This document shows positions 12,772-36,429 of a DNA stretch of 64,000 bases, piece after piece. The stretch lies in NCBI GenBank assembly GCA_023266875.1, contig JAHFOJ010000002.1:3163-67162 (forward strand), read 5' to 3'. Within the stretch, counting starts at the first letter, position 1. Each line of letters opens with the position of its first letter. The notes beneath the pieces were generated by a model. The model ran no database searches, was not told the origin of the DNA, and worked only from the letters and a program-made list of their open reading frames with translations. The stretch is from Candidatus Giovannonibacteria bacterium (GTDB lineage: Bacteria > Patescibacteriota > Minisyncoccia > JACPKW01 > UBA11713). The position numbers were made by a program, and so were the translations under genes.

Positions 12772-12963
12772 ATGGCAGCTTTTAAAGAAAACATAATAGG
12801 GCGCCTAGATCCGGTCTGCGGGCTTCAAATTGACGCGTCAAAAGCCAAGTTCCAAAGCACATTTGAAGAAACAACCTATTATTTTTGTCCCAAAAATTGC
12901 AAGGATCGTTTTGAAGAAGAGCCTGCAAAATACGACGGAGATTCAAACAACCGCGAGGATTGA
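12772..12963 (+). CDS. YHS/TRASH-like metal-binding domain protein
   Basis: 63 aa. DPVCGLQIDASKAKF...TYYFCPKNCKDRFEEEP resembles the YHS domain pattern. Confidence 0.55.
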   Translation: MAAFKENIIGRLDPVCGLQIDASKAKFQSTFEETTYYFCPKNCKDRFEEEPAKYDGDSNNRED

Positions 12964-12989: not shown

Positions 12990-13065
12990 TGGTCCGCCCA
13001 GTAGGAGTTGAACCTACAACCTTGTCCTTAAGAGGGACCTGCTCTGCCAATTGAGCTATGGGCGG
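12990..13065 (-). tRNA. tRNA-Lys (anticodon CTT)
   Basis: Manual cloverleaf: acceptor CCGCCCA/TGGGCGG, D-arm GCTCAATTGGCAGAGC, anticodon loop CTCTTAA, T-arm GTAGG-TTCAACT-CCTAC and an encoded CCA. Confidence 0.8.
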
Positions 13066-13177: not shown

Positions 13178-13852
13178 ATGAAAAAAATGGATTCAAGCGA
13201 CTTTACGCCATGGATTTTTACCGGCATCATCGTCCTTTTAACGGTCGGACTAATTGTTCTGATTTTTGCTTACGGCAACGGCTCTTCAGGCACAGCAAAA
13301 GAAACTACTGTCCCTGCCCTCACTCAAGAGGACTGGACGCATGGTCCTAATGACGCGAAAGTGAGTATAATCGAATACGGCGATTTCCAATGTCCGGCAT
13401 GCGCCGCTTACTATCCTCTGTTCCTCGAACTTGAAAATTATTACAAAGATAAATCGGTTATTTTTGCCTTCCGTAATTTTCCTCTTTATCAAGTACATAA
13501 AAACGCGGAGATCAGCGCAAAAGCTTCCGAAGCCGCGGGGCTCCAGGGAAAATATTGGGAGATGCACGACAAATTATACAAAGACCAAATTTCCTGGGGA
13601 GATGCTCCACAAAAAAAAGCAATGGAACAATTTGACGACTATGCTAAGTCGCTTAACCTTGATCTGGATAAATTACATAAAGACATGGAGTCCGCCAGCG
13701 TAAAAAATAAGATCGAAAAAGATGTTAAAAGCGCGAGCGACGCGTTTGTGGACCACACGCCAACATTTTTTATAAATCTGAAACAAATTAAGAATCCCAC
13801 AAGCCTTGATGAGTTTAAGAAAATTATAGACGATGCCCTCGCCGCTTCCTAA
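13178..13852 (+). CDS. DsbA-family thioredoxin-fold thiol:disulfide oxidoreductase (membrane-anchored)
   Basis: An N-terminal TM segment and a CPAC active site within a thioredoxin-like context (IEYGDFQCPACAAYYP). Confidence 0.8.
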   Translation: MKKMDSSDFTPWIFTGIIVLLTVGLIVLIFAYGNGSSGTAKETTVPALTQEDWTHGPNDAKVSIIEYGDFQCPACAAYYPLFLELENYYKDKSVIFAFRNFPLYQVHKNAEISAKASEAAGLQGKYWEMHDKLYKDQISWGDAPQKKAMEQFDDYAKSLNLDLDKLHKDMESASVKNKIEKDVKSASDAFVDHTPTFFINLKQIKNPTSLDEFKKIIDDALAAS

Positions 13853-14291
13853 ATCAAAGATCTGGGGGCTCGCTATCGCCAGTTTTTTAGGATTTGCTGA
13901 TGCAAGTTATCTTACAGCAGAGCATTATCTGAAATTGCCTCTGCCGTGTTCCATCACGCAAGGATGCGATACTGTTTTAAACAGCAGATACGCAATGCTT
14001 GCCGGGCTCCCGATAGCGTTTTTCGGAGCAATTTACTATTTGCTTTTGCTTTTCTTGGCGGTGAGTTTGCTTACCAACAAGAACAGCTCCGGCGCGCCGC
14101 AAATTAAAGCGGCTCTAGCCCTTAGCTCCTTTGGACTGCTGGTATCAATAATGCTTGTCTATCTGCAATTTTTTGTAATTTACCAGCTTTGCCTTTATTG
14201 CCTCGCTTCAGCCACATTCACGCTAATAGCGTTTGTCCTGTCCATAAGTATTTATAGGGCTCTCAAAAAATCTATTTTAAGCCATGGCTAA
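13833..14291 (+). CDS. Vitamin K epoxide reductase (VKOR) family protein
   Basis: A multi-TM protein with a conserved loop Cys pair (LPCSITQGCDTV) and a CxxC in a TM helix (LCLYCL). It pairs with the upstream DsbA-like gene. Confidence 0.75.
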   Translation: MPSPLPKSKIWGLAIASFLGFADASYLTAEHYLKLPLPCSITQGCDTVLNSRYAMLAGLPIAFFGAIYYLLLLFLAVSLLTNKNSSGAPQIKAALALSSFGLLVSIMLVYLQFFVIYQLCLYCLASATFTLIAFVLSISIYRALKKSILSHG

Positions 14292-17659: not shown

Positions 17660-18262
17660 CTACTTTCTATTCTCAAACGCGTGTTTCAGAGTATCTCTGT
17701 CTGAATACTCAAGTTCCGTTCCTGTCGAAAGGCCCCGGCCAAGATTCGAAATTTTAAACTTCCGGCTTTTAATAATCGGCTCAAGAATTTTTTCAATATA
17801 GCGTTTTGTCATATCACCTTCGGTTGTGGCTGATAGCGCTAAAACTATCTCGCCTAATTTTTTATTTGCCTCAACGCGTTTATAGAGTTCCTTCAAACGC
17901 AATTTTTCCTGTATCTCCGGACGCAAGGGGGAAAGAAGCCCGCCTAAAACATGATAGCGTCCGTCGAAAATCTGGTTACGCTCCATATTTTCAAGATCAG
18001 CGTCTTTTTCGATAACTAACAGCTTCGAATCATCGCGGTTGGGATTTGAGCAGACAACGCATTCATTGCTTTTTCCTTCAAAAATTCTAAAGCATGTTGA
18101 GCATCGAGAAACTTCTTTATGAAATCTCACAAGCAATTTTGAAATTTCTTCAAGCGACTTGGGTTCGGATCCTGCCAAATGATATACAAATCTACGAGCC
18201 TGCCTCGGTCCAATCCCGGGAAAGCTTTGAAAAAAATTAATTAAATCGGCGATTATGCTCAT
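17660..18262 (-). CDS. recR: Recombination protein RecR
   Basis: An HhH motif (FPGIGPRQARRF), a C4 zinc finger (CSTCFRIFEGKSNECVVC) and a Toprim domain. Confidence 0.92.
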   Translation of the reverse strand: MSIIADLINFFQSFPGIGPRQARRFVYHLAGSEPKSLEEISKLLVRFHKEVSRCSTCFRIFEGKSNECVVCSNPNRDDSKLLVIEKDADLENMERNQIFDGRYHVLGGLLSPLRPEIQEKLRLKELYKRVEANKKLGEIVLALSATTEGDMTKRYIEKILEPIIKSRKFKISNLGRGLSTGTELEYSDRDTLKHAFENRK

Positions 18263-18313
18263 ACTTAGAAATAGCAGATATTTAGTTAGCTTAGCAAATT
18301 TTAAGCGGGCGGG

Positions 18314-19717
18314 CTAGACTTCAAAAGATTCAAAACCGCTCGACGCTTCCATTGACATAAATGAAACGCTCTCTTGATTGAAATATAATGTGGCCCTGCC
18401 GACAGGCCCGTTTCTATGTTTGGCAATGAGCACATCTGCTTGGTTTTGGCGCTGAGAATTTTCGCGATATCTGTCCTCGCGATATAGAAACATCACAACA
18501 TCAGCGTCTTGCTCAATTGAACCCGACTCACGCAGGTCAGAAAGGCGCGGAATTGGTGGGTGACGCTGTTCAACCGCGCGCGAAAGCTGGGAAATAGCCA
18601 AAACCGGCACATTAAGCTCGCGCGCAAGCTGTTTTAAAGATCGGGAGATCTCTGTTACTTGCTGAACCATGCTGTCAGATGCGCGCTGGGGCATCATTAA
18701 TTGGAGATAGTCGATAATAATCAGCCCGAGGTTTCCGGAATCCGACTGGAGACGGCGCGCCATTGCCCGCATTTGTAGCACAGTGTTAGATGATTCGTCA
18801 TCAATATAGATAGGCGCGTTGGACAATCTGCCCATCGCGTCCCGGATCCGTAAAAAATCGTCGTTACTTTCAGAAAGTCGCCCCGTGCGAAGCTTCCAAA
18901 GCCCAACGCCGGATTCCGAGGCGATTAACCGGTCCACCAATTGCTGGGACGACATTTCGAGCGAAAATATGCCGACGGGCACGTTTTTTTCAACGGCAAC
19001 ATGCCGCGCCACATCAAGCGCGAATGACGTCTTCCCGAATGAAGGGCGCGCGGCCACAATAATTAAATCAGATTTTTGAAGGCCGGCTAAAATGTTGTCG
19101 ATGTCCGCAAAACCTGTCGGAACGCCGCGAAGCTCATTTTTATTTTTATGCAAATGATCGATCCGCTCCCAAGCTTCTTCAAGCTCTTGTCCTAGCACTA
19201 AAAATCGCTGGGAGAGCGAGCGCTGTGAGATCGCAAAAATCCTTTTTTCAGCATTATCCAAAAGCTGGTCAACGTCATCCCCCTCCCGATATCCTAACTC
19301 AGCAATATCGGCAGAGGCCTGAATAAGATCCCGCAATATTCTTTTTTTCCGAACTATCTCCGCATGATAGACAACATGCGAAGATGACGGAGAAGCATTA
19401 ACCAGATCGGCGAGATAGGCGGTGCCTCCAATAGCTTCCAATTTGTTCTGTTCCCGGAGCCGTGAAGACATTGAAATTACGTCAATCGGCTGGGAGCGCG
19501 AAAAAAGCTCAAGGGCCGAGGCGAAAATCACTTGGTGCTGGGGGCGATAAAAATCTTCGGGACGCAAAACGTCGATTATCTTAATTATCGCCTTGCCGTC
19601 AATCATCAACGCTCCGAGCGTCGCGATTTCAGCTTCGATATTTTGCGGAGGCACACGAACGGCAGCAGCAAAAGGAGACGGAGTAAGCGCGTCTTTAATT
19701 AATCTTTCATCAGCCAT
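18314..19717 (-). CDS. dnaB: Replicative DNA helicase DnaB
   Basis: An N-terminal DnaB domain (PQNIEAEIATLGALM), Walker A (RPSFGKTSFALD) and the RecA-like H3/H4 motifs. Confidence 0.93.
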   Translation of the reverse strand: MADERLIKDALTPSPFAAAVRVPPQNIEAEIATLGALMIDGKAIIKIIDVLRPEDFYRPQHQVIFASALELFSRSQPIDVISMSSRLREQNKLEAIGGTAYLADLVNASPSSSHVVYHAEIVRKKRILRDLIQASADIAELGYREGDDVDQLLDNAEKRIFAISQRSLSQRFLVLGQELEEAWERIDHLHKNKNELRGVPTGFADIDNILAGLQKSDLIIVAARPSFGKTSFALDVARHVAVEKNVPVGIFSLEMSSQQLVDRLIASESGVGLWKLRTGRLSESNDDFLRIRDAMGRLSNAPIYIDDESSNTVLQMRAMARRLQSDSGNLGLIIIDYLQLMMPQRASDSMVQQVTEISRSLKQLARELNVPVLAISQLSRAVEQRHPPIPRLSDLRESGSIEQDADVVMFLYREDRYRENSQRQNQADVLIAKHRNGPVGRATLYFNQESVSFMSMEASSGFESFEV

Positions 19718-19765
19718 ACACTAACTATAAAAACTTATTTCAAAATGCGCAAAGGTAAAAGTGAT

Positions 19766-21112
19766 CTATTTGTTACTTAACTGTGATTTAAAAACTCTTG
19801 GACCTTGCTCCGAGTCTGACACTTCAAATCCAAGCGCTTTTATCTCGTCACGCAAACGATCTGCTTGAAGCCAATCATGGGCGCGGCGATATTCTTCTCT
19901 TTTATTGACCAATTCTTCCACCCGGGCGGGTATCTTTAATTTTTCTAACGCAGATATGCCTAGCCCAAAAACTCTATCCGCAAAAATTAAATTATTATAT
20001 GTGGCCTTACCTGATTTTAATAATCTCCAGACAAGATCGAGCGCGCCCGGGATATTTAAATCATTATTAATTTTTGCCGCAAATGCTTTTTTAAACTCCC
20101 CCGATAGAAGTTTGCCTCCCTCGGCCTTCAGCTCAAGCGCCCGCCTTTCCATATTGAGGCGGGCGCTTGAAGCCGCTTCTAGCGAGCGCCAAGAAAATGA
20201 AAGGGGAGAGCGGTAATGAGCGGTTAGCGTAAGATATCTAAAATCAAGCGGAGAAAATCCGCGCTCCGCCATGTCTCGGAGTGTGAAAGTATTTTTAAGC
20301 GACTTGGACATTTTATGTCCCTCTACAGACATCATTTCACCTTCGATAAAAAACCGGGCGAATTTGTCGCCGCGCGCGCCCTCGGACTGGGCAATTTCAT
20401 TTTCATGGTGGGGAAAAATCAAATCGACTCCGCCAGCATGGATGTCTATTGGCATTCCTAAATATTTCACCGACATCGCGGAACATTCTATGTGCCAACC
20501 GGGACGACCGGCGCCGAATGAAGACGGCCACCACGGTTCATCGCCCCGCTTCTTCTTCCACAATACAAAATCTTTTGCCTGGTCTTTATCATATTCATCA
20601 GAGTTCACGCGGGCGCCAATTTTCAGCTCGCGTTTTTTGACTCTTGAAAGCCTCCCATAGTTTTTAAACTTCGAAATATCAAAATATACCCCGTCGTCGG
20701 TTTCGTAGGCCAATTTCTTTTTGACCAAGTTTCTTATCATTTTTACCATGTCGGGAACATGCTCAGTAGCTTTCGCGTATTTGGATGCTGGGAGAATATT
20801 TAATTTTTCTATATCGGAGAAAAATTCTTTAGTGTAACGCTCTGTGAAATCTTTCAGCCCTTCTCCAGATGCCTTGGAATCGCGAATCGTTTTGTCGTCA
20901 ACATCCGTAATATTCATGACTTTCTTCACCTTCAATCCAGCCAAAATAAGCGCCCTATGCAATAAATCTTCAAATATATAAGTACGGAAATTACCTATAT
21001 GCACAAATCCATATACGGTAGGCCCGCAAGCGTAAAAAGTAACGCGGCCCGCGTGTTTAGGCCTGAAAATCTCTTTTTTGCGCGTAAGTGCGTTAAAAAG
21101 CTTAATCGGCAT
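19766..21112 (-). CDS. cysS: Cysteinyl-tRNA synthetase
   Basis: A class I HIGH motif (HIGNFRTY) and KMSKS, with CysRS-specific blocks (YACGPTVY, WHIECSAMS). Confidence 0.93.
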   Translation of the reverse strand: MPIKLFNALTRKKEIFRPKHAGRVTFYACGPTVYGFVHIGNFRTYIFEDLLHRALILAGLKVKKVMNITDVDDKTIRDSKASGEGLKDFTERYTKEFFSDIEKLNILPASKYAKATEHVPDMVKMIRNLVKKKLAYETDDGVYFDISKFKNYGRLSRVKKRELKIGARVNSDEYDKDQAKDFVLWKKKRGDEPWWPSSFGAGRPGWHIECSAMSVKYLGMPIDIHAGGVDLIFPHHENEIAQSEGARGDKFARFFIEGEMMSVEGHKMSKSLKNTFTLRDMAERGFSPLDFRYLTLTAHYRSPLSFSWRSLEAASSARLNMERRALELKAEGGKLLSGEFKKAFAAKINNDLNIPGALDLVWRLLKSGKATYNNLIFADRVFGLGISALEKLKIPARVEELVNKREEYRRAHDWLQADRLRDEIKALGFEVSDSEQGPRVFKSQLSNK

Positions 21113-21149
21113 ATTCAGATTCTATCAACTTCTCAAATAAGCTTCTATC

Positions 21150-22070
21150 TTAAATCCACCTTCTGTATTTGAAGAAGGCGACCATAACCGCGACAACGCC
21201 AGCCATTATTCCTATGATCACCCAAAAATCGTTTGGTTGACCCACAATTGGGCGGGAAACTGCATCGATTGAAAATACCGTGGCGATAAGTGTGAGTGGA
21301 AACGTCAAAAGCGCGAGCATGGTGAACGCTTTGATAATTTCAGAAGAGCGGTGCGTTATCAATGAATTTGTCGTGTCATATAGCGTCTCAAGGGTATCTT
21401 TATTATTTAAGAGCAGGTTCGAAAGCCGGCGATATTGCGCGGCAAGCTCGGGAATTAAGCGCTTGAATGAATTGCCAAAAAAATCCGGGCCAATTTCCGC
21501 AAACGATTCCAAAAGAGAATCGTGCGGGCGGACCGCACGGGAAAAATCAAGCACGTCGCGGCGCAAATAGGAAATGTCTTCAATCAGCTTTTTTTCCTGC
21601 CCCGTAAAAATTCTCTCTTCGATTTGGTCTATTTTCTTTTGCAGAAAATCTATTTCAGCCAATAAATGATCATAAAGTTTTTTCCAAAGCATATAGAGCA
21701 GGGTATCAGTAGAGCCCGATACGCTAAAACAGCGTTCGCGAAGGGCCAAATTGAGCTCACAATGTTTGAAAAATTCTGCCATTGGCTCTATTGGCTCCTG
21801 GTGGACTGTTATTAAAAATTTTTTCCCGACAACTATGTCAAGCTCACGCGCCCGATGCGAACGGCCTTCAGGATCAAAAAGCGGAAGATGCAGTATGAAA
21901 TATAAGTGTGATCCATAATTTTCAGCGCGGGGTCTGAAAGACGGGCGGGAAAGCTCTTCTGCCACAAAATGAGAAAGTTCAAACTCCTTAGTGAGCGCCA
22001 AAATATCTTCAGGAGTCAGGCTCGGCACGTCAACCCACGATATGCCCTTGTAATCAATTCTTGAAATCAT
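21150..22070 (-). CDS. CorA-family divalent cation transporter with a variant pore motif (GMN replaced by SID)
   Basis: The N-terminal CorA cytoplasmic-domain pattern and two C-terminal TM helices are present. The loop reads ...IATVFSIDAVSRP where the canonical YGMNF is expected. The probable ATG is at 22070; the track used an upstream GTG. Confidence 0.65.
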   Translation of the reverse strand: MISRIDYKGISWVDVPSLTPEDILALTKEFELSHFVAEELSRPSFRPRAENYGSHLYFILHLPLFDPEGRSHRARELDIVVGKKFLITVHQEPIEPMAEFFKHCELNLALRERCFSVSGSTDTLLYMLWKKLYDHLLAEIDFLQKKIDQIEERIFTGQEKKLIEDISYLRRDVLDFSRAVRPHDSLLESFAEIGPDFFGNSFKRLIPELAAQYRRLSNLLLNNKDTLETLYDTTNSLITHRSSEIIKAFTMLALLTFPLTLIATVFSIDAVSRPIVGQPNDFWVIIGIMAGVVAVMVAFFKYRRWI

Positions 22071-22169
22071 GATGATTTTATACAGCACCTTTCAGATTAA
22101 TACTTTCCGGGGCTTTCACCCCTTGGAAAGGTGCTAAATTTATCTTACTATAGAAAGACTTAACTACAT

Positions 22170-23390
22170 ATGGAAATCAGAGGACGATCAAGAGCGATAT
22201 TTATAGCAATCACGGTAGCGGTCATCGTGGTTTCTTTTGCGCTTGGAGCATTTTTTGGCTATTCGCACCGCTCCGAACTTGAGAAAATAGGCGGTATAAA
22301 AAATGGCGCGTCAGGCAAACCGGACGATATTGATTTCGAACCGTTTTGGAATGCGTGGGCGATTATCGGAAATAAATTCGCCGGCTCCGACAATATAGAC
22401 AGGCAAAAAATGGTCTGGGGGGCGATTCAAGGCGCGCTCAACTCGCTTGGCGATCCTTATACAACCTTTTTCCCGCCTGAAGAGAAAAAACTATTCGATT
22501 CGGAGATTAAAGGGAGCTTCGCCGGCGTTGGGATGGAAATCGGGGTTAGGAAAGGAATACTGACTGTAATCGCCCCATTAAAAGATACTCCGGCCTATAA
22601 CGCGGGCATTAAGTCTGGAGATGCGGTTCTTAAAATAGACAGCAAAGAAACCGCCGGGATGACCGCAGATGAAGCCGTAAGATTGATCCGAGGAGAGCGC
22701 GGGACAAAGTTGAAATTGATAATACTGCCCTTAAATAAAGACAAAACCCGAGAGTTAACTTTAATCCGCGACATAATAAAAATACCAATCATTGAGACAA
22801 AAAAAGAGAAAAATAAAATATTTGTGATCAAGCTATACAGCTTTGCTGAAAATTCAGCGAACGAATTCAGAAACTCGATGCGCGACATGTATTTTTCCGG
22901 CTCAAATAAATTGATAATTGACCTGCGTGGGAATCCCGGAGGATATTTGGAAGCGGCAGTTGACATCGCTTCATGGTTTCTCGACACCGGGAAAGTGGTA
23001 GTCCGTGAAAAATTTAAGTCCGGCGAAGAACAGCTCTATCGATCACGCGGATATAAACCTTTCAGCAGCCTGATGATTGTCGTTTTAGTCGATAAGGGCT
23101 CGGCTTCTGCATCCGAGATTTTAGCTGGCGCTCTTCAAGATTACGGCGCGGCGAAGCTAGTGGGCGAAAAAACCTTCGGAAAAGGCTCGGTGCAGGAATT
23201 GGTGGATGTGACCAACAATACATCACTTAAAGTTACCATAGCGCGCTGGCTTACTCCGAACGGCCGAAGCATTTCCCAAAACGGCCTCGACCCAGATGTC
23301 AAAGTGGATCAAACTGAAAATGATGATACGAAGGGGATTGACAAGGCAATGGCGCGAGCGCTAGAAATACTAGAATCTTGGAATAAATAA
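22170..23390 (+). CDS. ctpA: Carboxyl-terminal processing protease (S41 family)
   Basis: An N-terminal TM segment, a PDZ domain (GVGMEIGVRKGILTVIAPLKDTPAYNAGIKSGD) and the S41 catalytic region (IIDLRGNPGGYL... VDKGSASASEILAGALQD). Confidence 0.88.
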   Translation: MEIRGRSRAIFIAITVAVIVVSFALGAFFGYSHRSELEKIGGIKNGASGKPDDIDFEPFWNAWAIIGNKFAGSDNIDRQKMVWGAIQGALNSLGDPYTTFFPPEEKKLFDSEIKGSFAGVGMEIGVRKGILTVIAPLKDTPAYNAGIKSGDAVLKIDSKETAGMTADEAVRLIRGERGTKLKLIILPLNKDKTRELTLIRDIIKIPIIETKKEKNKIFVIKLYSFAENSANEFRNSMRDMYFSGSNKLIIDLRGNPGGYLEAAVDIASWFLDTGKVVVREKFKSGEEQLYRSRGYKPFSSLMIVVLVDKGSASASEILAGALQDYGAAKLVGEKTFGKGSVQELVDVTNNTSLKVTIARWLTPNGRSISQNGLDPDVKVDQTENDDTKGIDKAMARALEILESWNK

Positions 23391-23403
23391 TTAATATCAT
23401 AAT

Positions 23404-23883
23404 ATGGCAAAAGTAATACTATTAAAAGACGTAATTAATCTCGGCCAAAAGGGCGACTTAAAGGAAGTAAAAGATGGGTACGTGAGAAATTTTCTTCTGC
23501 CAAGAAAACTAGCGGAACTTGCGACAAAGGCCAATATCCGCACACTTGAAGCAGAACAATCAAAAAGAGAAATTTTGAAAAGTGAGATATCATCTCGAAC
23601 GCAGGACGACTTAGAAAAGCTCGCCCGAGAAAAAATCATTTTCAAAATGCCAGCAAATGAAAAAAGACATCTTTTTGACAGTATTAGCATTTCAGAAATC
23701 GAGGCAAAGCTTCAAGAATTAGGAATTAAGAATATCAAAAAAGAGTGGATCAAACTTGCCTCACCGATAAAAGAAGTAGGGGAGAGCGAATTTGAAATTA
23801 AACCTCCTACGGGCGAAGCCGCAAGTTTCAAGATAACTGTAACCGAGAAAAAAACGCCCAAGAAAAGGTCTAGAAAAAAGTAG
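23404..23883 (+). CDS. rplI: 50S ribosomal protein L9
   Basis: MAKVILLKDVINLGQKGDLKEVKDGYVRNFLLPRKLA... is canonical L9, with a basic C-terminal tail. Confidence 0.9.
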   Translation: MAKVILLKDVINLGQKGDLKEVKDGYVRNFLLPRKLAELATKANIRTLEAEQSKREILKSEISSRTQDDLEKLAREKIIFKMPANEKRHLFDSISISEIEAKLQELGIKNIKKEWIKLASPIKEVGESEFEIKPPTGEAASFKITVTEKKTPKKRSRKK

Positions 23884-23905
23884 GTAGAAAAAAAATGGTA
23901 AGGGT

Positions 23906-24181
23906 TTATGCTACAATGCTTACCTTTTTTATACGTTTCGATCTTCCATCAAATCTCGTTTTTCTGACGTCAGAAAATTTAATAGTCCCAGGTGCGATTG
24001 CAAAAATCGTGTGGTCTTTGCCTATTGATGTGTTTTCTCCGGCAATAAAGTGTGTACCACGCTGGCGGATAATTATTGACCCCTTTTTCGCAGTCTCGCC
24101 CGCAAAAAGTTTAACCCCTAGATATTTAGGGTTAGAATCCCTGTTATTCTGTGTCGATCCTGTGGCTTTTGTATGTGCCAT
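23906..24181 (-). CDS. rpmA: 50S ribosomal protein L27
   Basis: [29 protein letters not shown]...[26 protein letters not shown] is canonical L27. The overlapping plus-strand ORF is spurious. Confidence 0.92.
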
Positions 24182-24225
24182 TTTAAGTTAGAATCTCTGG
24201 ATAAAACTCGTGCTATTATTTAACC

Positions 24226-24672
24226 ATGTTAAACGAGTGGGCGAGGAAAATCAAGTCCTGGTATAAAGACAACGAAAATGAGATCGTTTGGGTCGCGGTT
24301 GTTTTATTCGCTACGGGAGTCGGCTTTGGCGCCGGCCGTGTTGCAATTTTCAATTCAAATAAAACTCCTATAGAGATAAATCCGCCTGCAAGTAATCTTG
24401 GCGCAAACGCGATTAGCTCGCTTAATAGTTCTAGAGACGAAGCCGCCGCAGAAACAGAAAATAACTCTATAACTCAAATCACGGATAAAGAGCCCGTAAT
24501 CATGGAACAATCGCCTAAGATATATGTCGCCTCAAAAAATGGGAGTGTTTTTTATCTGCCAAGTTGCGGTGGCGTTAGATTAATTAAAGAAGCAAACAAA
24601 ATCTGGTTTTCGTCAAAAGAGGAAGCGTCGCGCGCGGGCTACAAACCGGCCGCAAATTGCAAAGGTTTATAG
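24226..24672 (+). CDS. Hypothetical membrane-anchored protein with a C-terminal two-cysteine module
   Basis: An N-terminal TM segment, a low-complexity linker, and a C-terminal KIYVASKNGSVFYLPSCGGVRLIKEANKIWFSSKEEASRAGYKPAANCKG. I cannot confidently place this small cysteine module in a named family. Confidence 0.45.
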   Translation: MLNEWARKIKSWYKDNENEIVWVAVVLFATGVGFGAGRVAIFNSNKTPIEINPPASNLGANAISSLNSSRDEAAAETENNSITQITDKEPVIMEQSPKIYVASKNGSVFYLPSCGGVRLIKEANKIWFSSKEEASRAGYKPAANCKGL

Positions 24673-25839
24673 ATCTTTTTCGATTTGTAATCGTTTGCGG
24701 CTTATGGTCAATGTTGAAACTTTTTTGATATCTTTTACTATGCCGTCAAACTTTTTTTGTTTTTGTTCCGGAAGTGTTTTTAAAATTTTCTCAAGTTTTT
24801 TCTCATCCACCTTCAAAACTTCCTGCCAAAGCCCCAAAGGCTGAAGCATAACGCGCGCGCGTTCCAAATCATAGTTTTTTTTCTCCGCCGTGCGCCGAGT
24901 TATATAACCATCTGGGCCAAATATGCGCTCGAGCCCTTTTTCATCTAAATAATGATGGATCTTAGCTTGAAGCATTTCAATCTTATCATATTGGCCTAGA
25001 ACGCTGTTTTTCGCCTCAAAATAATCCCTGATTATGCTTTTAATCTCTTCGTCTGAAGGCGCGTCTTCTTTTTTATACAAATGCTTCCACATCGGGCATA
25101 TAGGGCGATATGGACAAAATCCGCACCACGGACCCGGAGTAGGGGGAAATTCAGAAGACCTTTCGCGCTCTCTTATGTCTTTAATAGCCAAGAGTATCTG
25201 GTTTTTTGTTGAAGCAAGGTCGTCGCTACTTCTCTTTGAAGAAAGTTTTTCTCCATGCTCGAGAAAATAAAGCGAAAGCGTAACTTGATCCGGACTAATA
25301 TGAGTCCAGCGTTTCACCAAACCGAGATTATAAATGGAAAGTTGAAGATTTTTATCAACAAAATCTTGGCTTGGCATCCGGCGAGATGTTTTATAATCTA
25401 TGATCTCGTACGTATCGTCCGTAGGCTTATCTACCCGATCTATTATTCCCGCCAAAATATGACTTTCTTTCTGGTTTGGATCTTCAATAATCACTTCAAA
25501 TCTTGATTCTAGATCGACGATATTAAAATTCCACGGCTGATTTTTAAGAAAGAATTTCCTTAAAATCTTTTTTCCTTCTTCTAAATAAGAATCGGTTTGG
25601 TTTTCGGGAATTTTCAAAGTCAGTGACTCGCCTGACCAAATATCGGAAAAATAATTCAAAACCTCATCTATGGTAGGGAAGAGGGGATTCTTAGTGAACA
25701 TGAAACGGAGCGCGGAATGTATAACTGAACCAAAAACAGCTTCCTTGGATTTTTCCCCTTTGATCTTATCTATCTGGGAAAATTTATATTTTAGAGGGCA
25801 GATTTTAAATGTTTCGAGCGCGGAATATGATGTTCGCAT
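24667..25839 (-). CDS. PD-(D/E)XK nuclease, Cas4/RecB-like with a 4-Cys Fe-S cluster, plus a C-terminal extension
   Basis: N-terminal SYSALETFKICPLKYKF; motif II IIDRVD; motif III EIIDYKT; QLSIYNLG; and a C-terminal Cys triad WCGFCPYRPICP. Confidence 0.7.
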   Translation of the reverse strand: MRTSYSALETFKICPLKYKFSQIDKIKGEKSKEAVFGSVIHSALRFMFTKNPLFPTIDEVLNYFSDIWSGESLTLKIPENQTDSYLEEGKKILRKFFLKNQPWNFNIVDLESRFEVIIEDPNQKESHILAGIIDRVDKPTDDTYEIIDYKTSRRMPSQDFVDKNLQLSIYNLGLVKRWTHISPDQVTLSLYFLEHGEKLSSKRSSDDLASTKNQILLAIKDIRERERSSEFPPTPGPWCGFCPYRPICPMWKHLYKKEDAPSDEEIKSIIRDYFEAKNSVLGQYDKIEMLQAKIHHYLDEKGLERIFGPDGYITRRTAEKKNYDLERARVMLQPLGLWQEVLKVDEKKLEKILKTLPEQKQKKFDGIVKDIKKVSTLTISRKRLQIEKDL

Positions 25840-29174: not shown

Positions 29175-30299
29175 TTAATGCGACAATGCTAGTTTAAGTA
29201 TTTCTTCAGCAATCTTATCCGCAGCATCAAGCCGAGCAAATGCAGTCGCGGCCTTACGCATTCGTTCCACGGCCGCCTTATCCGCCTGCAGTTTTTTAAT
29301 TTCAAAAATAAGGAGGTGCGGTGTCAGATTTTTTTCTTCCATAACTATTGCCGCCCCGCATCTTGCATAGGCATAAGCGTTTTCGCGCTGTTCGTCCTGC
29401 GCGGCCGTCGGGAAAGGAATTAATATCGAAGGGAGCCCCCAGGCTGCAATCTCGAAAATAGCCCCCGCTCCCGCTCTTGAAACCACTAACGCGCTAACCA
29501 GCGCGGCATTTCTATACGCACCCTCATCTAAAAATTCGTAAACATGGTAGCGGTTTTTAGCATCCGTATTTTCAAAAACAATAGAGGCTCGCAATTTTGC
29601 TTCGCGAAAATTATTACGACCGGTAACGTGTATTATCTGGAAATCCCTGATTAATTCGGGCGCTATATCCAAGACAAAGTCGTTTAAAGCTTTGGCGCCA
29701 AGCGATCCTCCTAAGAATAAAATAGTGTCAACGCCGCTGTCTAAATTGAAAATTTCATTCGCTTCAACGACATTTCCGCCAATAATTTGTTTGCGCACTG
29801 GGTTCCCGGTAAGCGCAGTTCTTTCGGCCGGAAAATATTTTGCGGTTTCAGGGAAAGAAACCGCGATACGACTAGCGAACTTTGACGCCCATTTAGTGAC
29901 CTTGCCCGGAATTATATCCGACTCATGAATCACAAGCGGAATTTTGAATATTTTAGCCGCGACTAACGCTGGGAAACTATCATATCCGCCTTTCGCAAAA
30001 ATTACGTCCGGAAAATCAAGATAAATCTTAAATATAGCTTTTATAGCCCCCCAGAGCGTTTTAAAAGGATCGATTAAATTCATTATGGAAAAATACCGCC
30101 TAATTTTTCCTGACGGCAATTTCATGAATCTTATTTCCTCTTCAGAAAGCAATTGCGGATCGTATGGCTTGGATGCACCATATATCAGTTCCAGATCAAA
30201 TATCTTATCTCGTTCAGTTTTATCTTTAAGCGCCCGCGCTACGGCGATTAAAGGGTAAAAGTGCCCCCCAGTTCCACCTCCGGTTAAAAAAATTTTCAT
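29175..30299 (-). CDS. murG: Undecaprenyldiphospho-muramoylpentapeptide beta-N-acetylglucosaminyltransferase MurG
   Basis: MKIFLTGGGTGGHFYPLIAVARAL, the GT28 N- and C-domains and a C-terminal ...GAAIV motif region. Confidence 0.9.
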   Translation of the reverse strand: MKIFLTGGGTGGHFYPLIAVARALKDKTERDKIFDLELIYGASKPYDPQLLSEEEIRFMKLPSGKIRRYFSIMNLIDPFKTLWGAIKAIFKIYLDFPDVIFAKGGYDSFPALVAAKIFKIPLVIHESDIIPGKVTKWASKFASRIAVSFPETAKYFPAERTALTGNPVRKQIIGGNVVEANEIFNLDSGVDTILFLGGSLGAKALNDFVLDIAPELIRDFQIIHVTGRNNFREAKLRASIVFENTDAKNRYHVYEFLDEGAYRNAALVSALVVSRAGAGAIFEIAAWGLPSILIPFPTAAQDEQRENAYAYARCGAAIVMEEKNLTPHLLIFEIKKLQADKAAVERMRKAATAFARLDAADKIAEEILKLALSH

Positions 30300-30306
30300 A
30301 GATAAT

Positions 30307-31392
30307 CTATAATCTAGCCCTAGAAATATTCAGTAAAATTCCTATTTCAGCAAGCGTGATCGCGAGAGCCGAACCGCCTTGAGAAACAAACGGCAAAGGT
30401 ATACCCGTGAGCGGCAAAAGTCCGGACAGAGCCGCTATATTCACCAATGCTTGTACAATAATAAGTATAACAATTCCCGACCCAAAAAGTCTACCGAAAG
30501 AATCAGAAGCCTCGAGTGAAACCACAACTCCACGCCAAGCAAATAAAATAAATAAACTAACCAATATCGCGCTGCCCACAAATCCGAATTCTTCAGCGGC
30601 TACCGCGAAAATCGAATCACCCACCGGCTCCGGGAGATACTGAAACTTTTGCCTCGACATGCCAAACCCGCGCCCAAAAATACCGCCTGAACCAATGGCT
30701 ATAAGCGCTTGGCGCAATTGATATCCGGAACCCTGAGGATCGTGCGTCCGATCCGTAAAAACTTTAAAGCGCTCGAGGCGATACGGCTCAAAACGAACTA
30801 AAGCCGAAAAGAGCACTGCCCCAGCGAGAATTATTAAACAAATATGTTTAAGCGAACCACCCGCCGCTAGAAATAAAAAAAGTCCGGAGATGGCCATAAC
30901 TCCAAACGTCCCCACGTCCGGCTCTGATATTATAAGCGTGCCAGCCAAAACGCTGACTAAAATGAATGGCAATAACCCTTCTCTAAAAGTTTTTATGGCG
31001 GCGTATTTGGCTGAAAAGACGGCGGAAAGATAGGCGATATATGCGAATTTAATGAATTCCGATGGCTGAAAATTGACAGGCCCGAAGCCGATCCAGCGCC
31101 TCGCTCCGCCAAAAGATATTCCGATACTCGGGATAAGCACTAAAACTCCTAATATCAACCCTGCGACATATAGAGGAATAGCAAATTTTCGCCAAAATCT
31201 ATAAGGAATCCTTGAAGTTATGGCCATTGAAACAAGCCCCAAAGCTCCTCCCATGGCCAGTTGGCGCAAAACGTAATAGTAAGGAGACAGATCCTTCTTA
31301 GTAGTGAGGCCAATAGACGCTGAAGACAGTATAAAAAACCCAGCGAGCACTAGAATTAAAACAATCCATTTCAAAAGCGCGTCGGATCTCAT
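30307..31392 (-). CDS. ftsW: SEDS-family peptidoglycan glycosyltransferase FtsW/RodA
   Basis: A 10-TM profile with conserved blocks (PSEFIKF, SEPDVGT, AEEFGFVGS, TGIPLPFVSQGGSA). Confidence 0.88.
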   Translation of the reverse strand: MRSDALLKWIVLILVLAGFFILSSASIGLTTKKDLSPYYYVLRQLAMGGALGLVSMAITSRIPYRFWRKFAIPLYVAGLILGVLVLIPSIGISFGGARRWIGFGPVNFQPSEFIKFAYIAYLSAVFSAKYAAIKTFREGLLPFILVSVLAGTLIISEPDVGTFGVMAISGLFLFLAAGGSLKHICLIILAGAVLFSALVRFEPYRLERFKVFTDRTHDPQGSGYQLRQALIAIGSGGIFGRGFGMSRQKFQYLPEPVGDSIFAVAAEEFGFVGSAILVSLFILFAWRGVVVSLEASDSFGRLFGSGIVILIIVQALVNIAALSGLLPLTGIPLPFVSQGGSALAITLAEIGILLNISRARL

Positions 31393-32699
31393 TTAAGTTC
31401 GCGCACCCACCTTTTAAATTTGTTACCGCGGTCCTCATAATTTTTAAATTCATCAAAGCTTGTTGTACTTGGCTCTAATGCGACTGTGTCGCCTGGCTTT
31501 GCCAGTGTCGCTGCAGATTTCAATGCACCTTGAAGAGTTAACGCTACTTTAAAATTTTTCTTGCCCGATTTTTTAAAGTGGCGTGAAAGTTCTCGCCTCG
31601 CTTGCCCAAAGAATATTACGAATTTGACATCCGGATGAGCAAGCCGGCGCGCGAGTTGCCCGAGATTTAGATTTTTATTATGCCCGCCGGAAAGAACGAT
31701 CTTTTGGCCTCCAATAGAATTTATACCTTCGATTGCGGAGCCGACATTCGTCGCTTTCGAATCATTAAAATAATTAACACCATGTAATTCTCGCACAAAT
31801 TCATTTCGATGCGGCAAACCTTTAAAAGTTTTTAGCGCTTTTTGAATTGATTTTATTTTGACACCGAGGGCAATCGCCGCGAGAATCGCCGCCATGGCAT
31901 TTTTCAAATTATGATTTCCTACTAAGTGAAAATCGCTAAGCGGAAAAATCGCCCCCAATTTTTTATGGAAAATGTGATTTTCGCTCACATAGATATCCGC
32001 GTTCTTATTTTTTAGCGAGAATTTATATTTTTTTCCTTTTGAGTAGGAGGAGGCTCTTTGCGAACGGCGGTTGTCCAAATTATATATAACTGTATCCGAC
32101 CTTTCTTGGAACCGAGAAATGTTCGCTTTAGCGGAATAATATTCAGACAAGGTTTTATGCTTATCTAAATGCTCATCGTAAATATCAAGGATAACCGCGA
32201 TTTCCGGAGAAATTTCTAAGTCCTGAAGCTGGAAACTCGAAAGCTCAAGAATCGTAATATCTCTCTTGCTTAATTTACCCAAAAGCGGCAAAGGGTTTAT
32301 TCCAATGTTGCCAGCTAAATTAACACGCTTGCCTGATTCGCGAAGAATTTTGTAAATTAAAGAAACGGTGGTGGTCTTTCCTGCGCTCCCCGTTACGCCC
32401 ACGACCTTGCCAAGTTTTTTTGACATAAAAAGGCGAGTAAGACTAGAAACATTCCCACTTAGTTTATTTAATTGCGGAAGGTTTAACGGGATGCCCGGGC
32501 TTCTATAAACCACATCAAAGCTACCCAAATTATCGAGATAACGACTACCAAGTATGGCGTGCGTCCCTTTAGGCAATTTTATATTTTCATTCTTATCTCG
32601 AATTTCTATATTAACCTCATCTTTTTTCTTCAGATAAGAAAAGAGGGCTTGGCCCTCGAGCCCAAAACCCAGAATCGCGATCTTCTCCTTATTCTTCAT
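31389..32699 (-). CDS. murD: UDP-N-acetylmuramoylalanine--D-glutamate ligase MurD
   Basis: A Mur ligase Walker-like GVTGSAGKTTT and the central and C-terminal Mur ligase domains. It sits in dcw-cluster context. Confidence 0.88.
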   Translation of the reverse strand: MKNKEKIAILGFGLEGQALFSYLKKKDEVNIEIRDKNENIKLPKGTHAILGSRYLDNLGSFDVVYRSPGIPLNLPQLNKLSGNVSSLTRLFMSKKLGKVVGVTGSAGKTTTVSLIYKILRESGKRVNLAGNIGINPLPLLGKLSKRDITILELSSFQLQDLEISPEIAVILDIYDEHLDKHKTLSEYYSAKANISRFQERSDTVIYNLDNRRSQRASSYSKGKKYKFSLKNKNADIYVSENHIFHKKLGAIFPLSDFHLVGNHNLKNAMAAILAAIALGVKIKSIQKALKTFKGLPHRNEFVRELHGVNYFNDSKATNVGSAIEGINSIGGQKIVLSGGHNKNLNLGQLARRLAHPDVKFVIFFGQARRELSRHFKKSGKKNFKVALTLQGALKSAATLAKPGDTVALEPSTTSFDEFKNYEDRGNKFKRWVRELK

Positions 32700-34294
32700 A
32701 ATTTCCTGATTACCCGGCCTGCAAGTTTCCCTGTAACTTCTCCGGATTTCGCCGCAAGTTCTCCATTCACATAAACCGCCTCAACTCCTTCATTTCTTAA
32801 ATAAGGGTCCTTATAATCGGATGGGGCGTGAAGAGACGCCGGATCCAGTATAACCAAATCAGCATAATAGCCCTTCTCTATTTTCCCTCTGTTTTTAATC
32901 CCCAACACATCTGCTGGAAATTCCGTCAATTTATAAATGACTTCTCCAAGAGCTAATTTTGATTTTCCGCTGGCGTAATTCTCAATCGCCTTAATCATCG
33001 CGCCGAGCGATCTTGGATGGGGCGAATCAAAATCCATGCCGGTTTTCGGCCAACTTCGCCCTTCCCCGTCGGTAGCGAACATCGAATAATCTTTAGACGC
33101 GAGCGCGCTTAAATGATCTGAAGAAATTACTTCATTGAAAATGGATACGCCAAGCCCGTTGATTTCGATCATTTTTATCAGGCATTCTTCAGGAGAAATG
33201 CCAGCCCTCGATGCAAGATCAGAAATTGTCTTTCCTAAAACAGTTTTATCTTCAAACGCCGAAGCTACAATTATCTTATCGTAATGAAGCGTGAGCGAGG
33301 AAAGATAATCAATGACCTCTCGGCGTTTTGCCCTGTCGTGAAGTGAAAATAATATTTTTTCCTTGCCGTCTTCTAAGATCCAAGGCGGCAAGAGCTGATA
33401 GAGAAGCGAGCCCGTCTTGGTGTAAGGGAAAAAATCTATGGTCAGACGCGCGCCCTCAGAGCGGGCGCTTTCAATTAGCGCGAGCGCATCATTAAACGAG
33501 TTCCATGACTGTCGTCCCAGCACCTTAAAATGCGAAAATTGCATTTTTCCTCCCGATTCGTGGAAGACGTCTATTAATTCCACGATCGCGGGCATAATAT
33601 TTCGTCCTTCATCTTTCAAGTGATGTTTTGTAATTCCCTCTTCCTTCGATACCACCTTAAAAAGTCGTAGAAGTTCTTCTTTCGCCGTTCCCCGCCCATG
33701 CGCCGCTCCAAGAGCGGTAGACATGCCAAAGGCGCCTTCGTCCATAGACTCGCGGAGCAATATTTCCATCTCTGAAATTTCTTCTCTGTTAGCCGGGCGG
33801 GACTCGTCGCCTACGATGCCCCTCCTTAGAGTGCCATGCCCAACCAAAGCCCCAAAATTTACACCCAATGACCGACGGCTAAGCTCGCTTAAAAGTTCAG
33901 AAACACGACGCCAATTGATATTGATATCTCGAATATTAACCCATTTCTGGATTCCTTCTATATCTTCCCCCTTAACCAGCGGCGCGAGCGACGAACCGCA
34001 ATTCCCGCCAATTATGGTGGTTACCCCTTGAAGAAGCATGCTCTCCTGCCCGGGCGCGTTAAATAAAGTCCAATGCGTATCGGAATGATTTGTGATATCT
34101 ATAAAACCTGGCGTGATGATTTTTCCGGTCGCGTCAATAATTGTTTTAGCATTCGCGCCTGTAAGATCGCCTGTATCCGCGATAGCATCGCCTTTGATAG
34201 CGACATCCATGCGTGAAAATTTTCTATCCTTATGGACATCAGCGTTTTTTATCAATACCGAATATTCCGCCATATAATTATTATAGCAAATCAA
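32696..34294 (-). CDS. N-acyl-D-amino-acid deacylase (D-aminoacylase) family amidohydrolase
   Basis: PGFIDITNHSDTHW...QGVTTIIGGNCGSS is an amidohydrolase metal-binding pattern typical of D-aminoacylases. It is inserted between murD and mraY. Confidence 0.75.
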   Translation of the reverse strand: MICYNNYMAEYSVLIKNADVHKDRKFSRMDVAIKGDAIADTGDLTGANAKTIIDATGKIITPGFIDITNHSDTHWTLFNAPGQESMLLQGVTTIIGGNCGSSLAPLVKGEDIEGIQKWVNIRDININWRRVSELLSELSRRSLGVNFGALVGHGTLRRGIVGDESRPANREEISEMEILLRESMDEGAFGMSTALGAAHGRGTAKEELLRLFKVVSKEEGITKHHLKDEGRNIMPAIVELIDVFHESGGKMQFSHFKVLGRQSWNSFNDALALIESARSEGARLTIDFFPYTKTGSLLYQLLPPWILEDGKEKILFSLHDRAKRREVIDYLSSLTLHYDKIIVASAFEDKTVLGKTISDLASRAGISPEECLIKMIEINGLGVSIFNEVISSDHLSALASKDYSMFATDGEGRSWPKTGMDFDSPHPRSLGAMIKAIENYASGKSKLALGEVIYKLTEFPADVLGIKNRGKIEKGYYADLVILDPASLHAPSDYKDPYLRNEGVEAVYVNGELAAKSGEVTGKLAGRVIRKL

Positions 34295-34324
34295 ATAGAA
34301 AATTCTTGCATATCCAATATCAAG

Positions 34325-35377
34325 TCAGCGCCCCAATAGAGCCGTAACCATGCCGACTATGGCAGAGACAGCGGCGAGAACCCATGTCCTCATTACCACT
34401 TTGTACGAGGGCCATCCCAAAGCCTCAAAATGATGGTGCAGAGGGGCAACCAAAAAAACTTTGCGTCCTAAAAAACGCTTGGAGAAAAGCTGGATTATCA
34501 CAGATGAAGAATCTAGAACAAGGGGCAGGGCGATAATCGGAAGAACTAAAACTGCATCGGTTAAAAATGCTATGACCGTAAGCGCGGCCGTGAGTCCAAT
34601 TATGCCCGTCTCCCCCATATAAAATCTGGCGGGAGGAATGTTAAACCACAAAAAAGCTGAAATGGCGCCCGCGATAACCGCCGAAAGAGTCGCAAGGTCT
34701 ATTTGGTTTTGGAAAAAAGCGATGCCGGCGTAAGCAGAAAAAATCATAGCCATCACTCCCCCAGCAAGCCCGTCAAGCCCGTCAATTACGCCGCCTGAAA
34801 AAGTAGCGAGCATCACGAGCACAAAAAATATCGGGAAAAACCAGCCGAGCGAAAAATCTCCCTGAAATGGAATATAAATATGGTTAATATCGAGCTTCAC
34901 GAAAAACCACCACGCACCCACGAGTGCGATTAAAATAACCAAAAATATGCGCGCCGTTAGCCGCATGCCTCCGCCGGCATAACTTCCCTTGCCGAATACC
35001 TGCTCTAAATCGTCCGCCAAACCGACAAGTGACGCCGCAACAAGAGTGAAAAGCGGAAGCCATGTCTGCGAACGAGAAAGAAAATTCAACTTAGAAAAAA
35101 GCGGGCTGCCGGCGAGCGACAATGCCCAGATCGCAAGTGAAATAACAAGCGTCACTCCCCAAACTAAAATCCCGCCCATTCGGGGAGTCTTTTTTTCTTC
35201 GTCGTTATGCAAACGCTGGGAAATTTGCGCGACCTTGCCATCAATTGTTTTCGGAACGCTATGCTTCTTCCAAAGCTTATATTTGTAAAGATAATGCGTT
35301 AAAATCGGCGTGGTCAAAATGCCAACAATAAACGCCAGCGCCGAGAGTCCAAAAACTTTTAAGACATTTAAGATCAT
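34325..35377 (-). CDS. mraY: Phospho-N-acetylmuramoyl-pentapeptide transferase MraY
   Basis: A 10-TM protein with ...GLADDL..., ...VIDGLDGLAGG... and ...PLHHHFE... motifs. Confidence 0.92.
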   Translation of the reverse strand: MILNVLKVFGLSALAFIVGILTTPILTHYLYKYKLWKKHSVPKTIDGKVAQISQRLHNDEEKKTPRMGGILVWGVTLVISLAIWALSLAGSPLFSKLNFLSRSQTWLPLFTLVAASLVGLADDLEQVFGKGSYAGGGMRLTARIFLVILIALVGAWWFFVKLDINHIYIPFQGDFSLGWFFPIFFVLVMLATFSGGVIDGLDGLAGGVMAMIFSAYAGIAFFQNQIDLATLSAVIAGAISAFLWFNIPPARFYMGETGIIGLTAALTVIAFLTDAVLVLPIIALPLVLDSSSVIIQLFSKRFLGRKVFLVAPLHHHFEALGWPSYKVVMRTWVLAAVSAIVGMVTALLGR

Positions 35378-36429
35378 AATCCTACATTACTTCCATTTTT
35401 TTCTGATGCAAAATAAATTAAGACGGCGTTAGCAATCTGTGCAGCATCAAAAAAACGCCCCTCTTCGCTTGAACCTAAGATTGAAACAACAATGGGATGT
35501 TCAAAACCGGCATCGAAAATAAAAACTAAGTTTCCTCCCGCAAGATCAGTATATCCTGTTTTTGACGCGAGGATACGCGGAACTAAGCTAAATGATTTGT
35601 TCGTGCTTACGCCAGATATGACTCTATTCTTATCTGAAACAATTTTTATACTCTCGGCTCCAGTCGCAAGCATCATGCTGTTATGATTTTGAAACAAGTA
35701 CTCCATAAGTCCCGCAACATCTTTCGCGCTGCCTTCTGCCCCATCCGCATCACCGCCGCCATCTTTAATATCGAGTCCATTTGGATTTGAAAACGACAGG
35801 CTTAAAAAATCTAATTCTCTTGCGCGTTGGTTCATAAGCATTACAAACCTTGCCGGCGTGCTCCCGTTGCCATCAAGGCTAGAACCAACAAATCCGGCAA
35901 GGGCATATGCCGCATCATTTGAAGAGGAGACAAGCATATAGTTTAATAAGTCTTCTTTCTTAAATTTATCCCCGGCCCGGAAGCCATCATCGCCTTCTTC
36001 GCGTATCGCTTCGATTGAAATCGGGACATAAAATCCAGCGGGGATGCGCTCCTCGGATACAAGCGCGGTCATCAGTTTGGTTATGCTCGCAAGCGGCCTT
36101 AAAACATCGCTGTCTTTTTCAAATAAAACTTTATTTTCTTTCAGATCAAAAACATACGCGCTCTTTGCTTCAATATCCAGATTCTTGAAAGGATCAACTG
36201 ACTCTGTGTTTTCACGTTTCGCCCCTTCGCTTCTAGGCACGCTTAAATTAATAGACGAGAATGCACCTGCCTCTTGATCTTTAAATATCTTATAATCTAC
36301 CGCCCTAGCACCAGTGACAATCCCCAATTCTGGCACCGACGTCCTAAAAACGAAAAATGAGAACAAAAAGAAAATCCCGAGAACAATTATTTTCTGTAAC
36401 TTTTCATCCATTGTTTTTCTCTCCATTTT
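35374..36429 (-). CDS. D-alanyl-D-alanine carboxypeptidase (S11 serine peptidase, DacA-like)
   Basis: SxxK (SITKLM), SxN (SSSND) and KTG (KTGYT) motifs. The track start at 36474 overlaps scpB; the internal Met at 36429 or 36414 is more likely. Confidence 0.8.
   Translation of the reverse strand, partial: KMERKTMDEKLQKIIVLGIFFLFSFFVFRTSVPELGIVTGARAVDYKIFKDQEAGAFSSINLSVPRSEGAKRENTESVDPFKNLDIEAKSAYVFDLKENKVLFEKDSDVLRPLASITKLMTALVSEERIPAGFYVPISIEAIREEGDDGFRAGDKFKKEDLLNYMLVSSSNDAAYALAGFVGSSLDGNGSTPARFVMLMNQRARELDFLSLSFSNPNGLDIKDGGGDADGAEGSAKDVAGLMEYLFQNHNSMMLATGAESIKIVSDKNRVISGVSTNKSFSLVPRILASKTGYTDLAGGNLVFIFDAGFEHPIVVSILGSSEEGRFFDAAQIANAVLIYFASEKNGSNVGL

Follow-up and report, generated by a model that had tools for sequence, protein, structure and literature searches.

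The Gly-Met-Asn (GMN) motif is regarded as the defining and essential element of the CorA/Mrs2/Alr1 superfamily, whose other name, 2-TM-GxN (TM, transmembrane), reflects it, and the question raised by the locus described here is what becomes of a CorA channel in which all three of these residues have been replaced. The locus lies in a 64,000 nt stretch (hereafter the window) of contig JAHFOJ010000002.1 (assembly GCA_023266875.1) from a tiny groundwater bacterium of the Candidatus Giovannonibacteria group. The gene in question occupies positions 21150..22070 on the minus strand, starts with an ATG at 22070 and encodes 306 amino acids followed by a stop codon. An earlier inspection of the letters alone (the sequence-only reading) had proposed that this gene retains the CorA architecture and carries Ser-Ile-Asp (SID) where GMN is expected, and both points were borne out, the coordinates being exact; its interpretation of the exchange, as a sign of altered ion specificity or of a non-transporting role, is supported in part. 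What stands out is a lineage-wide and apparently selection-maintained exchange of all three filter residues in a gene that is orthologous by position to a normal CorA, accompanied by a putatively compensating Arg.

The database matches identify the protein as a homolog of CorA of the TmCorA/MjCorA type. Pfam CorA (PF01544) was matched over its full length with an E-value of 1.4e-45 and a score of 156.3 bits, the cutoff being 27 (residues 8-301 on positions 2-291 of the 292-position model), and TmCorA was matched at E 1.4e-18 in a phmmer comparison with the PDB sequences. The alignment with TmCorA runs without a gap from residue 215 to the C-terminus, so that ATVFSIDAVSRP faces AGIYGMNFEYMP and S267-I268-D269 (codons TCA ATC GAT, 21264..21272, minus strand) is equivalent in frame to G312-M313-N314 of TmCorA. 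In an AlphaFold2 monomer model built with 102 homologs (predicted local distance difference test score, pLDDT, 94.1; predicted template modelling score, pTM, 0.83), we found the CorA fold, with an N-terminal alpha/beta/alpha domain, a long stalk helix running into TM1 and a second C-terminal TM helix. The stalk/TM1 helix spans residues 206-267 and stops at S267, the loop covers 268-280 and TM2 covers 281-302. Foldseek matched the model to TmCorA and MjCorA chains with a probability of 1.00 and a TM-score of 0.75-0.85, and the secondary structure together with the match to the cytoplasmic domains of both proteins delimits the N-terminal domain to about residues 1-115 (21726..22070, minus strand).

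TmCorA (PDB 4I0U, 3JCF, 8TM*) and MjCorA are thus the best match in both sequence and fold (TM-score about 0.8), and the resemblance extends to the stalk helix continuous with TM1, the short periplasmic loop and TM2. Alignment and model agree in placing the pore-lining TM1 at about residues 244-267 (21270..21341, minus strand) and TM2, which begins with a conserved D281-F-W, at 21165..21230 on the same strand. At the level of the alignment, the acidic sensor site formed between the protomers of TmCorA by D89 and D253 is represented by E39 (21954..21956, minus strand), which faces D89, one of the residues that bind metal at the cytoplasmic M1 regulatory site, and by E208 (21447..21449, minus strand), which faces the second M1-site ligand D253; both are conserved in the clade described below. 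As in TmCorA, the pore is hydrophobic and includes a Pro (P258, corresponding to P303), and the basic C-terminus contains a Trp, the tail K-Y-R-R-W-I (21153..21170, minus strand) being the counterpart of KKKKWL. Unlike TmCorA, the protein has FSIDA in the place of YGMNF, so that both the Gly and the Asn of GxN are gone; its N-terminus is about 45 residues shorter; and the acidic MPEL-type loop, which is missing from the whole subfamily, is replaced by VSRPIV, MjCorA likewise lacking it (SYLPLA).

Placement in the neighbouring families was less favourable. From the G-x-N signature of the 2-TM-GxN family, in which x is M, V or I, the protein retains only a hydrophobic middle residue. The ZntB model NF007092 was matched at 24.9 bits against a cutoff of 292, and the motif is SID and not GIN or GVN. 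No Mrs2 chain appeared among the PDB sequence matches at E <= 1, which consisted of TmCorA, MjCorA and, weakly, CmaX. The CorA equivalog TIGR00383 gave 112.4 bits, under its cutoff of 200.75. However, GMN-type orthologs from Parcubacteria reached 139-176 bits and SID-type relatives 123-128, all of them below the cutoff as well, so the low score is a trait of the subfamily that the SID changes deepen. We also considered whether the protein belongs to some other two-TM family, which would have overturned the sequence-only reading, and rejected this: its significant hidden Markov model (HMM) matches are to CorA only, with DUF2207, holin and SLATT far under their cutoffs. The comparison with CorA, ZntB and Mrs2 that the same reading called for therefore ends with CorA.

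Could SID simply be an error, through a faulty base call or assembly, a frameshift or the decay of a dying copy? The reading frame runs unbroken through TCA ATC GAT (21272..21264, minus strand) and the conserved sequence on both sides of it, and at least four base changes separate these codons from GGN ATG AAY. An identical 306-amino-acid protein (P0001) is present in an independent public gene call, and the motif class is shared by 31 relatives and by eight species-level genomes at matching loci. Such an origin is vanishingly improbable on this evidence and we consider an artefact to be excluded; nothing was found that would restore GMN.

Indeed, the replacement characterizes a conserved lineage and is neither a stray paralog nor a decaying gene. 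A search of 5.8 billion proteins returned 112 matches, all of the type of about 300 amino acids; most carry no taxon name, two are labelled just 'bacterium', and the named ones are Patescibacteria save for one weak match from Myxococcota (P0107). All 25 closest matches (52-67% identity) have [S/A/G]-[I/L]-[D/N/E] at the motif. When GTDB genomes were added, 31 sequences of at least 50% identity were obtained, with SID in 11, AID in nine, SIN in four, SLN and AIN in two each, and SIE, GLD and AIE in one each; position 267 is thus S, A or G, 268 is I or L, and 269 is D, N or E, with D and N swapping within the clade. The open reading frames (ORFs) are intact in all 31 (about 292-306 amino acids), and the TM1 segment FTMLALLTFPL[T/S]LIA, P274, G277, D281-F-W and W305 show little or no variation. 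The clade was recovered in 100 of 100 neighbour-joining bootstraps even after the loop columns 262-278 had been taken out. The closest outgroups, most of them GMN, share 35-38% identity with it, and in a library of 1.84 billion representatives it amounts to one representative at 50% identity (507 bits), the next scoring 335 bits. The named genomes of the clade belong to Candidatus Giovannonibacteria, in the Parcubacteria group. Two loci (L021 and L023), from metagenome-assembled genomes (MAGs) labelled Giovannonibacteria or 'bacterium', carry at the matching syntenic position a CorA of SMN type (FSMNITPD...) that is 36-37% identical; either the name is shared by two or more lineages or the group has undergone repeated changes of the filter.

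The genomic position of the gene indicates where the change took place. Downstream of corA, on the same strand, cysS (19766..21112) follows after a 37 nt gap without a terminator-like site, and dnaB (18314..19717) and recR (17660-18262) come next in the same orientation. Upstream lies a divergent gene for an S41 (Ctp-type) peptidase (22170..23390, plus strand), which is the conserved upstream neighbour of corA across Parcubacteria and is itself preceded in the window by rplI and rpmA. This block, rpmA/rplI-S41 and, divergently, corA-cysS-dnaB-recR, covers 17660-25839 of the window. Of the eight SID-type GTDB loci, seven (L001, L003-L008) show the same order and the eighth (L002) ends before cysS; it is also shared by GMN-type loci from Yonathbacteria, Campbellbacteria (L017, the complete genome CP011215) and other Parcubacteria MAGs. 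We collected 80 species-level loci from 80 different assemblies, and 48 of them have both flanks, S41 upstream and cysS downstream; GMN is present in 20 of the 48, and the other 28 display SID, AID, AIN, SIE, DIN, DID, SMD, SMN, SMR, AMD, EVN and QMN. Because of this common position, the gene is the positional ortholog of GMN-type CorA. A tblastn search with 114 CorA queries found no second CorA copy in the 64-kb window or within 10 kb in the 80 loci and, together with the synteny, led us to reject the idea of a divergent paralog beside a normal CorA. With an orthologous locus and no second copy in the loci or the window, the change from GMN to SID happened in place, and the SID gene looks like the single CorA of this subfamily in the genome. 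The gene order S41-corA-cysS-dnaB-recR is, for its part, a useful anchor of orthology in Parcubacteria genomes. Many of the MAGs with these loci (L001, L002, L010, L013 and others), 'binchicken' and ERP/SRP co-assemblies, are titled 'uncultured Candidatus Saccharibacteria', a title that looks generic or wrong, since their CorA type and synteny match Giovannonibacteria and other Parcubacteria.

A search for MgtE as another route for Mg2+ gave no match either: a TtMgtE query, which matched PDB 2YVX at 952 bits, found nothing by tblastn in the window or in the loci, which represent one syntenic region, and an MgtE motif pattern, which was over-strict, had no match. In a Pfam scan of the multi-TM proteins of the window, only FtsW, MraY, a 7TM histidine kinase, MacB/FtsX and VKOR were detected.

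The GMN-type orthologs of Parcubacteria (Campbellbacteria CP011215, Yonathbacteria and Kaiserbacteria, for example; L010-L022) offer a close comparison. They have in common with the window protein an architecture of about 304 amino acids, the S41/cysS-dnaB-recR position, the TM1 core TFPL(T/S)LIA, P-I-V-G and DFW, yet they are just 34-41% identical to it and combine G-M-N with L, M or T at 273, where the window protein combines S-I-D with R273. Altogether about 20 positions are specific to the clade with respect to its GMN relatives, for instance R231Y, F254L and M162L. Around the motif much is kept. The TM1 pore residues I246, F249, A253, F257, P258 and T260 stand at the positions of TmCorA M291, L294, A298, M302, P303 and T305, and the basic C-terminus K-x-R-R-W-I is preserved. 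E39 is Glu in seven of nine SID-clade sequences and Glu or Asp in all 38 GMN-type orthologs, while E208 is Glu in eight of the nine, the GMN-type orthologs having a conserved Glu or Asp one helical turn on, at 212.

Natural departures from GMN occur elsewhere as well, in ZntB (GIN/GVN) and in the plant MRS2/MGT proteins (AMN, GIN), where Ile is found in the middle (GIN) and Ala in the first position (AMN). In those variants one residue is changed and the Asn is always kept, whereas all three residues differ in the window protein and the Asn has become Asp; moreover, plants have their AMN and GIN members as paralogs beside GMN copies, in contrast to the positional ortholog described here. Our literature search, limited to the library at hand, found no description of a prokaryotic CorA without GxN or of variation in the CorA motif of Patescibacteria.

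An indication that the new motif matters for the pore comes from a residue outside it, R273 (21252..21254, minus strand), four positions past D269. Arg or Lys occupies 273 in 33 of 62 sequences with an acidic residue at 269, compared with 3 of 180 sequences with Asn there. When sequences were clustered at 45% identity with the loop excluded, the contrast held, with a basic residue at 273 in 8 of 16 clusters of the acidic kind and in 1 of 60 of the Asn kind (Fisher p = 5.5e-6). Distinct lineages display the pairing anew, as SID...SRP, TID...GRP, QID...SRP, DID...SRP, SID...HKP and AMD...SKP. Of the eight Asn variants inside the SID clade, the six with SIN or SLN resemble GMN proteins in having L or T at 273, while the two AIN sequences keep Arg. 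This covariation points to charge compensation of D269 by R273, and the two side chains may be in direct contact. Taken together, the restricted range of substitutions and the covariation of 269 and 273 therefore argue for selection on the pore mouth itself.

What could such a protein do? We lean towards a working cation channel regulated by cytoplasmic metal, with a rebuilt, charge-balanced filter, that is probably still the housekeeping Mg2+ route. In GMN channels, the polar ring at the entry consists of Asn side chains and the ring beneath it of Gly backbone carbonyls, both coordinating partly hydrated Mg2+ (PMC3629940; PMC11919701), and selectivity in CorA depends also on residues outside GMN (PMC12933068). 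In the Giovannonibacteria lineage, the filter of what is presumably a CorA-type pentamer would have been rebuilt from G-M-N to [Ser/Ala]-Ile-[Asp/Asn] with three chemical roles kept: a small residue would close TM1 and line the pore with its backbone carbonyl, an aliphatic residue would pack the loop, and an oxygen-donor side chain would make a five-fold polar ring facing the hydrated cation. Ser or Ala can stand in for Gly because a backbone carbonyl needs no Gly, Asp can stand in for Asn because it offers the same oxygen donor, and Ile is plausible in the place of Met since known GIN members have it. The extra negative charge of Asp269 would be offset by Arg273. Such a channel would still admit hydrated divalent cations, most likely Mg2+ as housekeeping uptake, and could still be shut by cytoplasmic metal at the acidic E39/E208 site, although its affinity and its discrimination among divalent cations may differ from those of GMN channels. 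Asp432 of MgtE and the DIME motif of MCU are examples of an entrance carboxylate ring with which a divalent cation interacts in hydrated or partly dehydrated form; they serve as an analogy only, the folds and oligomeric states being unrelated.

Several observations weigh against this proposal. Single GMN substitutions abolished Mg2+ transport or left no measurable current in every CorA and Mrs2 protein that has been studied by experiment, among them TmCorA, Salmonella CorA and Mrs2 (PMC4613352; PMC11919701; PMC12933068), a record from which one would expect SID not to work with Mg2+. Other positions along the pore axis have shifted too: N243 (N288 in TmCorA) is relaxed to S, N, T or A in the clade, with Q/T242S beside it, position 246 has gone from M to I or V, and position 231 is Y in 31 of 31 clade members against R in 83 of 126 GMN relatives; these shifts fit a changed permeation. 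The middle Ile recalls the ZntB-type GIN motif. All of this would suit a neofunctionalised channel in which an Asp ring and the other pore changes have moved the main substrate away from Mg2+, towards Ca2+, Mn2+, Zn2+, Co2+/Ni2+ or a cation flux of much lower selectivity; Mg2+ would then have to come from the host or through a different transporter. Such a shift also draws on the consistent replacement of Met by Ile in the clade (Met in 126 of 126 GMN relatives), on the link between GxN variants and other preferences in known members such as ZntB, and on the carboxylate rings at the pore mouth that typify Ca2+-selective filters (MCU DIME, Orai E106). We nevertheless find it rather unlikely. 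The gene sits where GMN CorA has its locus, as a positional ortholog, and the loci, each from a different assembly, showed no further copy of the subfamily within 10 kb. Besides, the free swapping of Asp and Asn in the clade and the offset by R273 mean that the mouth is not simply more negative, and the Asp-lined site of MgtE also recognises hydrated Mg2+. CorA-family members are in any case broadly permeable to Mg2+, Co2+, Ni2+ and Zn2+ regardless of subfamily (PMC6972854).

The intolerance of GMN to substitution in experiments could also mean that transport has been lost and that the protein is kept to sense Mg2+ in the cytoplasm, to act as a scaffold or to fill a structural role in the membrane. 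Some variants in the subfamily have Arg, Lys or Pro in the place of the Asn (SMR, GMK, GLR, NLR, SLP, ALP, TFP). No ring that coordinates cations can be built from these residues, which suggests that non-conducting forms may be tolerated in the family, and the motif positions are more variable than the flanking TM1. This outcome nonetheless seems improbable to us, more so than a change of substrate, in view of the pore-lining TM1, P258, TM2 and the C-terminal basic/Trp motif, which are conserved to the same degree as in GMN orthologs, and of substitutions that are limited to small, aliphatic and Asp/Asn/Glu residues and covary in a compensatory way with R273. Streamlined genomes would also be expected rarely to retain an inert membrane protein at a conserved locus throughout a lineage. 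Orthology, the preserved pore, sensor site and C-terminus, and the conservative, charge-compensated replacement therefore argue together against a dead or non-transporting protein, and the rebuilt Mg2+ channel remains the reading that we prefer; the same evidence is compatible with retained Mg2+ transport and with shifted selectivity alike.

The SID clade is not a one-off, a point that escaped the sequence-only reading, as GMN is clearly degenerate across the whole Parcubacteria CorA subfamily. It is kept in 62 of the 148 best representative clusters of the subfamily of about 300 amino acids, a sample that was ranked by similarity to the SID clade so that its fractions are indicative only, and in 38 of the 80 GTDB loci. 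The other motifs in the clusters include SMN (13), GMS (5), SMR (4), AMD, SMD, ALD, QIN and QID, and some clusters have Lys or Arg (GMK, SMK, GLR, NLR, SMR) or Pro (SLP, ALP, TFP) at the Asn position. A separate lineage, mostly of Kaiserbacteria-labelled MAGs (L028, L036, L039, L043, L049, L051, L055, L058, L060, L062, L073, L076 and L079), carries F-D-I-N/D-A (DIN/DID), with Asp in the place of the GMN Gly, and its genes are mostly found within the S41-corA-cysS synteny.

It is tempting, though on balance doubtful, to see in this pattern a repeated re-engineering of the single syntenic CorA filter in Parcubacteria, with [S/A/T/Q]-I-D...R-P as a recurrent alternative in which an Asp ring and an Arg four positions on would give a selectivity or conductance unlike that of GMN. 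The difference could possibly consist in Ca2+/Mn2+ permeation or in a weakly selective divalent uptake, which might suit an episymbiotic, transporter-poor cell. If this view is true, the subfamily amounts to a natural mutational scan in which GMN is dispensable for CorA function and the compensating changes are revealed. If the window protein conducts Mg2+, it is the chemistry of the filter (small, aliphatic, oxygen donor) that matters and not the exact residues, and D269N, R273L, SID to GMN and the reverse graft into TmCorA are ready constructs for work on the conservation of GMN; if it conducts another ion, a new selectivity class would be defined. The exchange would surprise CorA specialists and provides a direct experimental handle on why GMN is conserved. 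As for annotation, the label 'magnesium transporter CorA' in Patescibacteria should be read with caution, since it rests on the fold, and most of the clusters sampled have a non-canonical filter.

The enclosing ORF extends over 21150..22088 (minus strand) and offers an alternative start, a GTG at 22088, that has no support from homologs. All of the close homologs open with MISRIDY or MLSRIDY and the public gene call agrees, hence our choice of the ATG at 22070. Just upstream of corA, in the short divergent intergenic region, a promoter-like site was noted at 22147..22176 (minus strand), consisting of TTTCCA, an 18 nt spacer and TATAGT; it is a match to consensus only. An Rfam scan found no M-box riboswitch in the window, its matches being three tRNAs only.

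Some further features of the window deserve mention. At 23895-24191 (plus strand), a public ENA call on the identical contig predicts a 98-amino-acid product without a Pfam match, while the ORF at 23906-24181 on the minus strand encodes ribosomal protein L27 with 52-66% identity across the related loci; the ENA call is probably on the wrong strand. A division and cell-wall cluster with a MurD-like ligase, FtsW, MurG and a MraY-type glycosyltransferase lies at 29175-35377 (minus strand), and an S11 D-Ala-D-Ala carboxypeptidase gene of the same cluster at 35374-36474. The histidine kinase at 39720-41354 (minus strand) has an N-terminal 7TM domain (HisKA_7TM). Finally, a 63-amino-acid protein with a YHS (metal-binding) domain appears in the public call at about 12772-12963 (plus strand), adjoining a tRNA at 12993-13065 and neighbouring a DsbA/thioredoxin-like gene and a VKOR gene (13833-14291).

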